Below are positions 4,615 through 9,698 of a stretch of 32,000 nucleotides of DNA, piece after piece (the stretch's first letter is position 1; each line of letters opens with the position of its first letter). The notes below the pieces were generated by a model that saw only the letters and a program-made list of their open reading frames with translations, did no database searches and was not told the origin of the DNA. Made by a program: the position numbers and the translations under genes. Source of the DNA: Candidatus Saccharimonadota bacterium (GTDB taxonomy: Bacteria; Patescibacteriota; Gracilibacteria; Absconditabacterales; Absconditicoccaceae); NCBI GenBank assembly GCA_000503875.1, contig CP006913.1, positions 120,001 to 152,000 on the forward strand, in the 5' to 3' direction.

Positions 4615-4642
4615 TTTACATTTATATATTTGTGTATATAAT
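4615..4642 (+). promoter_or_regulatory. Candidate sigma70-type promoter P1 of the rRNA unit
   Basis: tttaca (4615-4620), 16-nt spacer, tataat (4637-4642). Confidence 0.5.
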
Positions 4643-4753
4643 ATGTCTAGACACTTTTGTCTACGTTTTTATTTCCATTTCATAAATTTTGCCATAAATA
4701 ATATGGCTTAGTACCTGGGAAAAAAAGAAAAGTAAAAAAAAGTCAAAAAAGTC

Positions 4754-4781
4754 TTGAAATGGAAGATTAAATTACTATAAC
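4754..4781 (+). promoter_or_regulatory. Candidate sigma70-type promoter P2 of the rRNA unit with an A-rich UP-like tract
   Basis: ttgaaa (4754-4759), 16-nt spacer, tataac (4776-4781). An A-rich tract at 4722-4750 lies upstream. A boxA-like acttaacaa sits at about 4824-4834 downstream. Confidence 0.5.
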
Positions 4782-4845
4782 ATCTCACGCAACACTTTTG
4801 GAAGAACAACTCTAGGTGTTGATGAAGCGGATACTTAACAATAAT

Positions 4846-4880
4846 ATCATATATTACATTTTTCAAAAAAACAATAAATC
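4846..4880 (+). other. 5' arm of the 23S rRNA processing stem (pairs with 7798-7833)
   Basis: atcatatattacatttttcaaaaaaacaataaatc is nearly the exact reverse complement of gatttattgttttttttgaaaaatgtaatatgtgat at 7798-7833. This gives a helix of about 35 bp enclosing the 23S, an RNase III-type substrate. Confidence 0.85.
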
Positions 4881-7805
4881 TATTTAAAAGCAATGAGAGG
4901 ATGCCTTGGGTAGAAAAGAGGATGAAGGACGTAGTTGGTTGCGAAAAGTTCCGGTAAGGTGCCAACAGCCGTTTGGAGCCGGAAATGTCCGAATGGGAGA
5001 ACCTGGTCCGTATAACGGATCGCCATATAGGCCAAAACCTGGTGAAGTGAAATATCTCAGTAGCCAGAGGAAAAGAAATCGTAAGAGATTCCCGTAGTAG
5101 TGACGAGCGAACTGGGAAGAGTCCAAACTCACATAGTGTAAGGTGCTAGCCGTTGCTATGATGAGGGTAGTAGGATTATTTAGGATTGACTAGTATCAAT
5201 CCAGGGACACAATGTCTTTTTAAGAGAAGCATCTGAAAAGGTGTACCATAGAGGGTGAAAGTCCTGTATCTAAAAAGAAGGCATGGCCCAAATATCTCCT
5301 GAGTAATGTCGAACACGTGAAATTCGGCATGAAGTTGCCCAGACCACTGGGTAAGACTAAATACTTTTCTACACCGATAGTGAAGAGTACCGTGAGGGAA
5401 AGGTGAAAAGAACCCTGGAAAGGGAGTGAAATAGATTCTGAAACTCATTGCTTACAAGGGAGTGGGAGCTCGCAAGAGTGACCGCGTACCTATTGACGAA
5501 TGGGTCAGCGAGTTGTTAGTAGTAGCGAGGTTAAGGCAGTTATAGCCGGAGCCGTAGGGAAACCGAGTCTGAATAGGGCGTTTAGTTGCTATTAATAAAC
5601 CCGAAGCGTGACGAGCTACGCATGGGCAGGATGAAGAGTTGGGAAACTGGCTTGGAGGTCCGAACGGTTTGGTGCTGCAAAACCTTCCGATGACTTGTGC
5701 GTAGGAGTGAAAAGCTCATCGAGTTACGTGATAGCTGGTTCTCTCCGAAATGCATTTAGGTGCAGCCTGCAAATTAGATCTTATAGAGGTAGAGCTCTTA
5801 CAAGGCTAGGGGTGTCGAAAGGCATTACCAAACCTTATTAAACTTCGAATGCTATAAGGAATTTTGTGGAGTGAGACTGTGGGGGCTAAGCTTCATAGTC
5901 GAAAGGGTAACAGCCCAGATTTCTGGTTAAGGTCCCTAAAGTATAGCTAAGTGGAAAAAGAGGTGTTTTTGCTTAAACATCCAGGAGGTTTGCTTAGAAG
6001 CAGCAATCCTTTAAAGAAAGCGTAACAGCTCACTGGACAAGCGAAAATGCGCTGAAGATGTAACGGGGCTAAGCTATATACCGAAACCGAAAGCCTTTTG
6101 ATTTATCAAAAGACGGTAGGAGAGTGTTCTTTATTGGCTGAAGGTGTGGCGTAAGCCTAGCTGGACGATAAAGAAGTAAACATGCTGACATGAGTAACGA
6201 CGCAAGACGAAAATTCTTGCTGCCGAAATCCTAAGGATTCCTACGCAACGTTCATCGTCGTAGGGTTAGGCGAGACCTAAGGCTTACTCGGAAACGAGGA
6301 GTCGATGGACTGCTGGTTAATATTCCAGCCCTTATATAAAGAGTGATGGGGTAACACATTGGGATGTGTGAGAGCGTGCTAAGGATGTGCGTTGAAAGAG
6401 TGACGTGTTTTGACTTCGGTCAAAAGGTGGAGATAGGCAAATCCGTTTCCATTATAAACAAGCTTGATCAGAAATGATTCCCTCGGGATGAATGATTCTC
6501 ATAGTTTTGGTGTCAAGAAAAACCTCTAAACTTATCTTTATATAACTCGTACCCAGATCAGACACTTGTAGGATGGTAGAGAATACCAAGGCAATCGAGA
6601 CAACTAATAATTAAGGAACTTGGCAAAAAAGCGGGCCTAAGTTTGCAATAAGCCCTGCCCTGCAGCAATGTAGGGTCGCAGCGAATGACGTGGGGGGGAC
6701 TGTTTATCAAAAACACAGCTCTCTGCTAACTCGAAAGAGGATGTATAGAGGGTGATGCCTGTCCAATGCCAGAATGTCATGTTCTCTTGTGCAAGCTCGA
6801 GAATTAAGCACTGGTGAATGACGGCCGTAACTATGACGGTCCTAAGGTAGCGAAGTACCTTGTCGGGTAAGTTCCGACGCGCATGAATGGCATAACCATC
6901 CCCACACTGTCTTAATTTTAGACTCGGTGAAATTACATTCCCGGTAAAAATGCCGGGTAGTTGCAGTTAGACGGAAAGACCCTGTGAAGCTTTACTGTAG
7001 ATTGATATTGGGGTGTAGCATTTGCTGCTCAGCATAAGTGGGAGGCTTTGAAGTTTGGTTTTTGGACCAGGTGGAGCCGACAGTGAGATACCACTCAATA
7101 TATGTAGCATCTCTAATTCCGTTAACGCGGAAAACAGTGTCAGTTGGACAGTTTACCTGGGGCGGGTGCCTCCTAAAAAGTAACGGAGGCGTACAAAGGT
7201 TTGCTTGTCACGGATGGAAACCGTGGTGGAAGTGTATTCGCATAAGCAAGCTTAACTGTAAGACTAACAGGTCAAACAGATACGAAAGTAGGTGAAAGTG
7301 ATCCGGATCTTCCATGTGGAAGGGGATCCGCTCAACGGATAAAAGTTACTCCGGGGATAACAGGCTAATGGAATCTAAGCGTTCATAGCGACGATTCCGT
7401 TTGGCACCTCGATGTCGACTCGTCGCATCCTGGGGCTGTAGAAGGTCCCAAGGGTTGGGCTGTTCGCCCATTAAAGCGGGACGCGAGTTGGGTTCAGAAC
7501 GTCGTGAGACAGTTCGGTCCCTATCTACTGTAACCGCAAGCAACTTGAGAAACGCTGTCCCTAGTACGAGAGGACCGGGATGGACTAGCCTCTAGTTAAC
7601 CAGTTGTCACGCCAGTGGCACGGCTGGATAGCCACGCTAGGAAAAGGTAACCACTGAAAGCATCTAAGTGGGAAACTTGTTTCAAGATGAGGTTGCTCTC
7701 TCTTCGGAGGTAAGATCTCCCGTAGACTACGGGTTTGATAGGCGCCATGTGAAAGTCCCGTAAGGGATTGAGCAAAGGTGTACTAATAGATCGAGAGGAT
7801 TTATT
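4873..7805 (+). rRNA. rrl: 23S ribosomal RNA (about 2.93 kb, no obvious intron)
   Basis: The 5' region ggatgccttgggtag...gatgaaggacgt is present. So are conserved cores gacggaaagaccctgtgaagctttactg and ggataacaggct...ggcacctcgatgtcg...gttcggtccctatc, and the 3' end tactaatagatcgagagg. Ends are set by the helix-1 pairing aataaatc / gatttatt. Confidence 0.95.
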
Positions 7806-7907
7806 GTTTTTTTTGAAAAATGTAATATGTGATGTTGTTGTATATAGTTTCTAGCAGATTCTATTGTATTCGAAGAGCGGTTTTATATACTAAAACCCGT
7901 CGATTTA

Positions 7908-8037
7908 CTATAACGGTGGTGCTGACGCGGCTTGGGGAAATACCTGTTCCCATTCCGAACACAGAAGTTAAGTCCAAACCGGTCGATGATACTTGCACTG
8001 TTAGTGCTGGGAAAGTAGATTAGTGCCACCATTATAG
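7908..8037 (+). rRNA. rrf: 5S ribosomal RNA (ends approximate)
   Basis: Conserved ccgaacacagaagttaag and gggaaagtag motifs. Terminal helix ctataacggtgg / ccaccattatag. Confidence 0.88.
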
Positions 8038-8064
8038 TAGATGGAAGATCATTAATAGGTTTAA

Positions 8065-8082
8065 AAAGAAATAAAGTATGGC
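8065..8082 (+). other. 5' arm of the 16S rRNA processing stem (pairs with 9617-9634)
   Basis: aaagaaataaagtatggc is the exact reverse complement of gccatactttatttcttt at 9617-9634, bracketing the 16S. Confidence 0.85.
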
Positions 8083-8086
8083 TTTT

Positions 8087-9580
8087 TTTGAAGAGTTTGA
8101 CCCTGGCTCAGGATGAACGCTAGCGGAACGCCTAACACATGCAAGTCGAACGAGAGTTATTTTGTAGCAATACAAGATAATGAAAGTGGCAAACGAGCGA
8201 GTAACACGTACTTAACCTGCCCAGAAGTTGAGGCCAACTACAGAGATGTAGCTAATCCTCAATAGTATCTAAGTGATGAAATTAGCTTAGATTAAAGATT
8301 TATCGCTTTTGGAGGGGGGTGCGGCCTATCAGGTAGTTGGTGAGGTAATGGCTCACCAAGCCTATGACGGGTAGCCGGTCTGAGATGATGTCCGGCCGCG
8401 ATGGGACTGAGATACGGCCCATACTCCTACGGGAGGCAGCAGTGGGGAATCTTGCACAATGGACGAAAGTCTGATGCAGCGATTCCGCGTGGAGGATGAC
8501 GCATTACGGTGTGTAAACTCCTTTTCTGGTGGAAGACGAATGACGGTACACCAGGAATAAGGGACGGCTAACTACGTGCCAGCAGCCGCGGTAATACGTA
8601 GGTCCCAAGCGTTATCCGGATTTACTGGGCGTAAAGAGTCTGTAGCCTGATATATAAGTCTGTTTTCAAATACCTGGACTCAATCGAGGGAAGGGGATAG
8701 ATACTGTATATCTAGAGATATTTGGGGGTTAGTGGAATTTCCGGTGGAGCGGTGAAATGCGTTGATATCGGAAAGAACGCCAAAAGCGAAAGCAGCTAAC
8801 TACAATACATCTGACGGTGAGAGACGAAAGTTTGGGGAGCAAACGGGATTAGATACCCCGGTAGTCCAAACCTTAAATTATGCTTGCTAGGTGTTTAGAT
8901 CTTTCGGGATCTGAGTGCCGTAATCTAACGAGTTAAGCAAGCCGCCTGGGTAGTATATTCGCAAGAATGAAACTCAAAGGGATAGGCGGGGGAACACACA
9001 AGCAGTGGATTGTCTAGATTAATTGGATACAAAGCCAAGAATCTTACCTAGGATTGACATGCAATGTGTCATATATGAAAGTATATTATCCGTAGCAATA
9101 CGGAGCTTTGCACAGGTGGTGCATGGTCGTCGTCAGCTCGTGCCGCAAGGTGTCTAGTTAAGTCTAGTAACGAGCGCAACCCTCGTCCTTAGTTAGAATG
9201 TCTAAGGAGACTGCCTGGGTAACCAGGAGGAAGGAGAGGATGACGTCAGATCCTCATGCCCCTTACACCTAGGGCTTCATAGACAATACAATGGGTAGTA
9301 ACAACGAGAAGCAATACCGCGAGGTGGAGCAAATCTTTAAACCTACCCCTAGTTCGGATTGTAGTCTGGAACTCGACTACATGAAGTTGGAATTGCTAGT
9401 AATGGCGGATCAGCTATGCCGCCGTGAATATGTCCCTGTTCCTTGCACTCACCGCCCGTCAAACCATGGGAGCTGAGGTTCTTTGAAGACTCGCTATGCG
9501 GGTTAAGGAGGAAATCAGTGACTGGGGTTAAGTCGTAACAAGGCATCCCTACGGGAACGTGGGGATAGACCACCACCCTA
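8087..9580 (+). rRNA. rrs: 16S ribosomal RNA (about 1.49 kb) located downstream of 23S-5S
   Basis: 5' end is tttgaagagtttgaccctggctcaggatgaacgc. Conserved blocks include gtgccagcagccgcggtaatac, ggattagataccc and aacgagcgcaaccc. The 3' end is aagtcgtaacaagg...ggggatagaccaccacccta. Confidence 0.95.
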
Positions 9581-9673
9581 AACTATAAAATTTAGAGAAC
9601 ACTTAATTACCAACCCGCCATACTTTATTTCTTTCTGAACTTATTGATCAACATTCCTTTCTACTAGGAAAAG

Positions 9674-9698
9674 TCTCATCTTCACGATGGGATTTTTT
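9674..9698 (+). terminator. Intrinsic terminator after the rRNA unit
   Basis: Stem tctcatc / gatggga (one G-U pair), loop ttcac, then tttttt. Confidence 0.75.

Follow-up and report, generated by a model that had tools for sequence, protein, structure and literature searches.

Results

Gene order and gene boundaries

The 32,000-nucleotide (nt) stretch of DNA analysed here (contig CP006913.1, positions 120,001 to 152,000; referred to as the window) contains a ribosomal RNA (rRNA) operon with the genes arranged in the order 23S-5S-16S. This permuted order, in place of the usual 16S-23S-5S, is confirmed as real. It is not a new phenomenon, being an already published trait of the candidate phylum SR1 (Absconditabacteria). 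As the best explanation of the locus we propose, with considerable confidence, an SR1/Absconditabacteria rRNA operon of a bacterium that reads UGA as glycine, in which the modules have been circularly permuted and which yields one precursor processed through two long helices. The conserved signals described below indicate that the three rRNAs are almost certainly made as one transcript.

Rfam covariance models identified a full-length 23S gene at 4873-7807 (RF02541; 2477 bits, model positions 1-2925), a 5S gene at 7915-8031 (RF00001; 70.6 bits, full-length model) and a full-length 16S gene at 8085-9580 (RF00177; 1370 bits, model positions 1-1533). All three are on the plus strand and none is truncated. 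An earlier reading of the same DNA (the original prediction) had proposed these genes in this order on one strand, and the covariance models, used to check the boundaries, returned the three genes as claimed. Its limits for 23S and 16S fall within 2 nt of those given by Rfam, but its 5S (7908-8037) took in a short flanking stem and so exceeded the gene by about 6-7 nt at either end. The 23S-5S and 5S-16S distances are 107 nt and 53 nt, respectively. The 277 nt from the end of 23S to the start of 16S (7808-8084) contain only the 5S gene, with neither promoter nor terminator, and no plausible coding open reading frame (ORF) is found in either spacer. ARAGORN detected no transfer RNA (tRNA) gene in or near the operon, in agreement with the predicted lack of spacer tRNAs; the single tRNA gene of the window is a tRNA-His at 18075, and tRNAs are likewise absent from every locus compared. 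The neighbouring genes are those originally described: a gene on the minus strand (2951-4603), divergent from the rRNA genes, lies beyond the upstream region, and ppa (Pyrophosphatase, PF00719; 9723-10271) follows the terminator.

Assembly and distribution across lineages

Metagenome assemblies are notorious for breaks and chimeras in rRNA regions. The permuted order might thus come from a chimeric rRNA join or from collapsed tandem canonical operons, in which case the real genome would carry a canonical copy; in our own material, contig DPJE01000006.1 breaks inside 23S, and the rRNA genes of one locus (L007) are gapped internally. The window is, however, 100% identical to a 264-kilobase (kb) MEGAHIT contig from a sediment metagenome (ENA ERZ936476), and DPJE01000006.1, which belongs to a different assembly (GCA_003543185.1), runs independently from the 3' end of 23S through 5S and 16S into ppa, again with 100% identity. 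Two assemblers therefore give the same sequence across this span, and the chimeric join against which the original prediction had warned is not seen there. A third 100% identical sequence, a Logan contig of another run, ends within 16S.

We then looked for the same arrangement elsewhere, using a conserved 5S motif followed by a conserved 16S 5' motif. In an operon of canonical order the two motifs would not be expected so close together. The pair was searched with a distance of 91-151 nt in 185,579 genomes (one per GTDB species) and with a distance of 121-181 nt in Joint Genome Institute (JGI) metagenomes; the motifs were exact, and the scan of the species genomes covered spacers of 12-72 nt. 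Matches were obtained in 7 of the species genomes and in 15 JGI metagenome contigs. According to Rfam, all of these 22 independent loci have the order 23S-5S-16S on one strand. TGA recoding was seen in every matched locus with enough flanking DNA to judge. Within the limits of the pattern, close 5S-to-16S adjacency among the 185,579 species representatives thus appears only in recoded lineages.

The 22 loci (individual loci are designated by L numbers) represent about eight lineages, and several of them sit on contigs of 88-445 kb. In the first 240 nt of 16S they are between 99% and 73% identical to the window; the full-length 16S identity is 82-84% for L005 and L009. The 23S-5S/5S-16S spacers measure 106-111/52-53, 45/63, 129/63, 51/64, 57/97 and 50/91 nt. 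Such recurrence over many samples and lineages is hard to reconcile with an artefact of assembly. Furthermore, the 23S and 16S flanks co-evolve within each lineage (see below), which a chimera would not produce, and unique protein genes together with a promoter or a terminator are found at both ends of the operon. The same order was reported in 2014 for three SR1 genomes, one of them from a single cell, and the same group had no success with a 16S-to-23S polymerase chain reaction (PCR) on an oral SR1 taxon (PMC4192840). The complete genome of Vampirococcus, a relative near Absconditabacteria, has one rRNA operon (PMC8080830). We consider an assembly artefact extremely improbable and take the permuted operon as genuine. 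We also considered whether the operon is an internal part of a tandem array of canonical operons; this is ruled out by the unique genes, the promoter and the terminator at the two ends.

Two co-evolving flanking helices

The flanks of each large rRNA gene form a long helix. Around 23S, the 5' arm at 4838-4880 pairs with the 3' arm at 7798-7841, with weaker pairing extending out to 4806 and 7880; with this extension the helix has 67 pairs and a folding energy of -59.9 kcal/mol. Around 16S, folding pairs the 5' arm at 8034-8083 with the 3' arm at 9616-9667 (42 pairs, -50.7 kcal/mol). All four arms are on the plus strand, and the 5' arm of the 16S helix occupies 50 of the 53 nt of the 5S-16S spacer. 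The two longest inverted repeats of the region are 4838-4871/7808-7841 and 8051-8082/9617-9648. Those originally described (4846-4880/7798-7833 and 8065-8082/9617-9634) are real, although the lengths reported for them were too short. Relative to dinucleotide shuffles the two helices of the window reach z = -10.2 and -10.8, and the values obtained across lineages by the same procedure range from -3.8 to -11.

Pairing between the 5' and 3' flanks of both 23S and 16S is found in every lineage, with arm sequences that are unrelated from one lineage to another. We compared cognate and non-cognate flanks in an energy matrix that is alignment-free and excludes the mature rRNA termini. The mean energy was -35.0 kcal/mol for cognate against -13.2 kcal/mol for non-cognate 23S flanks, and -46.6 against -22.4 kcal/mol for 16S flanks. 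RNAalifold, applied to nine 23S mini-precursors, gave 30 consensus pairs for the 23S helix, of which 19 exhibit compensatory double changes. For the 16S helix, a family-only alignment on which the structure was projected from the duplex of the window shows 98% of cells paired within the window's family, against 41-54% with slid partners, and three compensatory pairs. These comparisons indicate that both flanking helices co-evolve and are maintained by selection, and they support the predicted existence of a separate excision helix for each large rRNA.

A single transcript could also carry these helices mainly as clamps for folding or assembly that join the ends of each rRNA, its maturation being left to single-strand-specific enzymes (RNase E/G, RNase J, YbeY, exonucleases). 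RNase III is known to be dispensable for ribosome formation in E. coli, the helices found here are AU-rich, and no rnc gene is present in the 32-kb window, the search not having been genome-wide. Yet long and near-perfect helices of about 42-67 base pairs (bp) around each large rRNA are the classic substrate of RNase III, as known from E. coli and B. subtilis. Compensatory change has kept them this long and this nearly perfectly paired in every lineage, which exceeds what would be needed for joining the ends. A role limited to clamping seems to us improbable, and we favour excision of each large rRNA by cleavage of its helix.

Promoter, terminator and boxA-like elements

The proximal promoter P2 (4754-4781, plus strand; TTGAAA-16-TATAAC) is the conserved promoter of the operon. 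Its layout (TTGAAA or TTGCAA, a 16-nt spacer and TATNNN) occurs 88-148 nt before 23S in seven of the seven lineages for which upstream sequence is available, and is recovered independently by a promoter scanner in L017 and L025. In no lineage compared is this layout found in the 5S-16S spacer or within the rRNA genes. An A-tract of the AAAAAGTNAAAAAAGTC type, read from the sequence, immediately precedes P2 (4717-4753, plus strand), and similar A-rich tracts stand before the -35 hexamer in L018, L019, L022, L009, L017 and L025. The tract resembles an UP element, a role that may be proposed by analogy with E. coli rrn P1. The distal promoter-like site P1 (4615-4642, plus strand; TTTACA-16-TATAAT, 11/12 matches) is the best sigma-70 match in 4300-10000. 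Its conservation is confined to the window's genus (L006, L011 and L020, at positions -257 to -268 relative to 23S), more distant lineages having no such site. Both promoter-like elements noted upstream of 23S in the original prediction are therefore present on the plus strand, and the region described as AT-rich has a G+C content of 23.9% over 4530-4872.

At the other end, the operon is closed by an intrinsic terminator on the plus strand, a 13-bp hairpin followed by a T-run at 9668-9704. The scan places it at 9668-9698, after 16S as predicted, and it is the single plus-strand terminator-like site in 4300-10000. A hairpin and T-run of unrelated sequence is found at the same place in L007, L008, L019, L022, L012, L009, L017 and L025; nine of the nine loci examined, from eight lineages, have a terminator behind the 3' arm of the 16S helix. 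The plus-strand scan of the window revealed no terminator between 23S and 16S, including the position after 5S. Similarly, a consensus scan found no plus-strand promoter-like site in the 23S-5S or the 5S-16S spacer of the window, the latter having been described, correctly, as a spacer of about 50 nt with no convincing promoter. A separate 16S promoter would lack room there, because 50 of its 53 nt form the helix arm. A conserved promoter found only before 23S and a conserved terminator found only after the 16S helix agree with the single transcription unit that had been put forward as probable.

The operon might instead consist of two adjacent but functionally unlinked units, 23S-5S being transcribed from the upstream promoter and 16S from a promoter of its own located within 5S, within a spacer or towards the 3' end of 23S. 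Separation of 16S from 23S-5S is common among reduced-genome bacteria, and the window exhibits weak 9/12 plus-strand sites within 23S at 5186 and 6185; these are at chance level. In L017, a divergent lineage whose 5S-16S spacer measures 97 nt, that spacer holds a weak promoter-like site (9/12 matches) on the strand of the rRNA genes. This site (2323-2351, minus strand; TATACA-17-TAGAAT with TG) could be a secondary 16S promoter in that lineage or a chance match. In the window itself, neither spacer contains a plus-strand promoter-like site, no terminator-like site separates 23S from 16S, and the 53-nt spacer is nearly all taken up by the 16S helix arm and a boxA-like element. No lineage has the conserved promoter layout beyond the start of 23S. 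Moreover, a 5S-16S spacing of 52-64 nt is held in most lineages, for which there would be no selective reason if the two units were independent. We regard two units as unlikely and retain the single transcript.

Motifs resembling boxA precede both large rRNA genes. The element before 23S (GATACTTAACAA; 4830-4841, plus strand) has counterparts 38-75 nt before 23S in L022, L009, L017 and L025. The element before 16S (GATCATTAATAG; 8047-8058, plus strand) is within the 16S helix arm, and its counterparts are found 37-50 nt before 16S in seven of eight lineages. The motif has 12 matches in the two leader windows and two elsewhere in 81 kb. The leader motifs resemble the boxA of E. coli, GCTCTTTAACAA.

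A single-precursor model

Taken together, these elements lead to the following model. Transcription would start at the strong promoter P2 with its A-tract, about 95-120 nt before 23S, and in the window's genus a second start would be provided by P1, about 140 nt further upstream. An antitermination complex is probably loaded at the boxA-type elements that precede the two large rRNAs, and would keep RNA polymerase going over the unit of about 4.9 kb. The 23S flanks are predicted to form a helix of about 43-67 bp, and the 16S flanks one of about 42 bp. A double-strand-specific endonuclease, most likely RNase III, would cut both helices and release pre-23S and pre-16S. The piece between the cuts would be a 5S precursor of about 190 nt with its own short stem, which would then be trimmed. 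Transcription would stop at the single intrinsic terminator (9668-9704), which adjoins the 3' arm of the 16S helix.

Several points weigh against this model, in addition to the promoter-like site in the L017 spacer. Promoter-like sites are not enriched in the region (13 found, against 10.0 +/- 3.2 expected from shuffles), and the case for the promoters draws on their position and conservation rather than on the scan. The boxA motif was drawn by eye from the same leaders in which it was counted, which makes the enrichment test partly circular, and its fit is poor in L018 and L019 (23S leader) and in L025 (16S leader). The distant 16S flanks could not be aligned by MAFFT, and covariation there is represented by the energy matrix, not by per-column counts. 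The genes for RNase III, NusB and NusE are not in the 32-kb window, no genome-wide search having been made. Lastly, co-transcription, the identity of the nuclease, the cleavage sites, the mature ends and the function of boxA are what we infer from the sequences.

As to the origin of the permuted order, the simplest course would be that a canonical operon was duplicated in tandem and that the outer (first) 16S and the outer (second) 23S-5S were then lost. We also lean towards the view that the single-precursor permuted design is ancient and fixed across a whole radiation of bacteria with UGA as a sense codon, beyond the three SR1 genomes of 2014.

Host and genetic code

The 16S gene of the window shows zero mismatches to the targets of the SR1-selective primers AF31-X1 and AF32, taken from Camanocha and Dewhirst (PMC4192840), and is 98.2% identical to that of L008, which was deposited as Candidatus Absconditabacteria bacterium. 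By this 16S signature only, the host is placed in the candidate phylum SR1/Absconditabacteria; the primer-target matches support the SR1/Gracilibacteria origin suggested earlier. Placement is ambiguous for L005/L022, L012, L017 and L025, which have 1-4 primer mismatches to the SR1 and to the GN02/Gracilibacteria sets alike.

Under genetic code 11 the ORFs of at least 100 amino acids (aa) in the window add up to 4,964 aa; with code 4 or 25 the sum is three times as large (14,816 aa). In-frame TGA codons number seven in ppa (9723-10271) and 23 in a penicillin-binding protein gene (3-2900). Judged from these reading frames, TGA is a sense codon throughout the window, codes 4 and 25 fitting equally well. 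Glycine is the proposed reading of UGA, the ORFs of the window being equally compatible with tryptophan. The table-11 gene calls in the NCBI record of this metagenome-assembled genome (MAG) are fragmented because TGA is sense.

An SR1-type operon together with TGA recoding is also carried by public MAG contigs whose database names (Borreliella garinii, uncultured Bacteroides sp., Bacillota bacterium and Candidatus Peribacteria) point to unrelated organisms. These contigs are L004 (DYOB01000420.1), L006 (CAZKSK010000069.1), L009 (JBMOLK010000224.1), L005 and L010. The last of these, titled Peribacteria, belongs to the window's own genus, with a 16S 98.1% identical to that of the window. These contigs have probably been mis-binned or mis-classified, and the 5S-to-16S junction could serve to flag such mislabelled MAG contigs. 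A different irregularity is seen in L007 (UBA5124, DHYS01000011.1), of which the 16S is just 1,216 nt long (555 bits) and the 23S is gapped too. A BLAST alignment of its 16S against the window falls into three blocks, leaving 263-760 and 1061-1126 of the window's 16S unaligned. The gaps are probably due to assembly collapse in that MAG, the gene order being unaffected.

Other features of the operon and the window

The 5S gene is flanked by a short stem of its own, 7906-7913 (TACTATAA) pairing with 8032-8039 (TTATAGTA) on the plus strand. The compensatory form TACTACAA/TTGTAGTA is found in L004, L006 and L008, and L009 has an 11-bp stem of unrelated sequence. The 3' half of this stem (8032-8039) shares nucleotides with the beginning of the 5' arm of the 16S helix, so that the 5S-stem pairing and the 16S-arm pairing are alternatives. 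The segment TTATAGTAGA just 3' of 5S (8032-8041) has as its partner either 7906-7913 or 9660-9667 (TCTACTA), and both pairings show compensatory changes in relatives. This suggests a pairing switch at 8032-8041 during processing. The 23S-5S spacer contains a small hairpin on the plus strand (7877-7900; GCGGTTTTA-TATAC-TAAAACCCGT), obtained by folding 7842-7914 and not followed by a T-run. It is kept in the window's family, L007 pairing through another stem (GGAGATTCC/GGAATCC), and is absent from lineages with 23S-5S spacers of 45-51 nt.

The 3' tail of 16S (9558-9580) lacks the CCUCC core of the anti-Shine-Dalgarno sequence, that of the window ending in ...GGGGATAGACCACCACCCT. The tail varies by lineage, with the forms CCACTATTCT, CCACCTTTCT, CCACTATCCT and CCATCTTTCA among the loci compared (L007, L019, L022, L012, L009, L017 and L025). 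None of GGAGG, GAGG, AGGA and GGTGG occurs within 25 nt upstream of any of the 16 gene starts of the window. In these lineages translation is probably initiated without Shine-Dalgarno pairing.

No gene for rRNA processing adjoins the operon. The window contains only an RluA-type pseudouridine synthase gene (PF00849; 15942-16925, minus strand) and an FtsJ-type methyltransferase gene (PF01728; 23852-24523, plus strand), neither of them adjacent. Both families include rRNA-modifying enzymes; here they lie 6-14 kb downstream of the operon, and their presence in its vicinity is probably coincidental. Two large ORFs have no Pfam match, one at 2951-4603 (minus strand, about 525-550 aa) and the other at 21252-22952 (plus strand, 562 aa). 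The former, the gene divergent from the rRNA promoter region, encodes a product with a hydrophobic N-terminus.

Discussion

In a 23S-5S-16S transcript, 23S rRNA would become available before 16S rRNA; this follows from the sequence. The original prediction went further and proposed that transcribing 16S last reverses the order of subunit assembly, a suggestion that reaches beyond what sequence can tell. Small and large subunits are each built on their own RNA, and the many bacteria in which the rRNA genes are unlinked make clear that ribosomes do not depend on a fixed order. The existence of a stable natural 23S-first operon indicates that the near-universal 16S-first order is not required for ribosome assembly. 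If the shared design is indeed ancient, the whole 5S-16S spacer in these bacteria would serve both as 16S helix arm and as carrier of boxA, so that 16S would be made only after 23S and 5S, and 5S would be freed by two helix cuts. These organisms would then constitute a natural experiment showing that ribosome biogenesis can do without transcribing 16S first. The order would in addition mark the clade cleanly at the genome level, and would explain why the clade is missed by standard long-amplicon surveys spanning 16S, the internal transcribed spacer (ITS) and 23S. Methods and databases based on 16S-ITS-23S amplicons, as well as classifiers of linked and unlinked rRNA genes that use distance only, will miss or misclassify these bacteria. 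The comparative evidence makes the model of a single transcript with two helices specific enough to be tested.

The order 23S-5S-16S was reported in 2014 for SR1-OR1, RAAC1 and ACD80 by Camanocha and Dewhirst (J Oral Microbiol, PMC4192840), who noticed it after the failure of the 16S-to-23S PCR mentioned above and described it as previously unseen in any organism. The main text of that paper deals with the order only. To this the present analysis adds the helices and their covariation, the conserved promoter, the boxA-like elements, the terminator, the 5S stem and the extension to about eight lineages. In the searchable literature we found no later treatment of the SR1 order, its processing signals or its distribution beyond PMC4192840; the works consulted included the unlinked-rRNA preprint cited below, a paper on rRNA insertions in CPR bacteria and the Vampirococcus paper. 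The operon of the window and those of 2014 have the same order and strand arrangement and come from the same phylum, with UGA recoded alike.

The E. coli rrnB operon has promoters P1 and P2 with an UP element, boxA in leader and spacer, RNase III stems, spacer tRNAs, 5S in the last position and terminators at the end. The permuted operon shares with this type the tandem promoters with an A-tract, a boxA-like element before each large rRNA, the helices formed by the flanks and the terminator at the end. It differs in having 16S last, no spacer tRNAs, 5S between the two helices and the terminator after 16S.

Another departure from the canonical organisation is the separation of 16S from 23S-5S, which is known in Thermus, Rickettsia, Helicobacter and many reduced-genome bacteria. 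The window resembles these cases in departing from 16S-23S-5S, in the small genome and probably single rRNA copy, and in the intact 23S-5S block. Unlike them, its genes are adjacent on one strand, with a 53-nt spacer and no promoter or terminator between. Genes are counted as unlinked when 16S and 23S are more than about 1.5 kb apart or have other genes between them; here the distance is 277 nt and only 5S intervenes. As the genes adjoin with no promoter or terminator between, the locus is linked and merely reordered. The preprint of Brewer et al. on unlinked rRNA genes (10.1101/705046) makes no mention of SR1 or of a reversed order.

A last comparison is offered by engineered ribosomes, in which an altered order of rRNA synthesis is tolerated as it is in SR1. 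Kitahara and Suzuki reportedly permuted, in 2009, the domains within E. coli 23S in the laboratory, with ribosomes still being made. The SR1 operon is, by comparison, a natural permutation of whole genes that has become fixed in a lineage.

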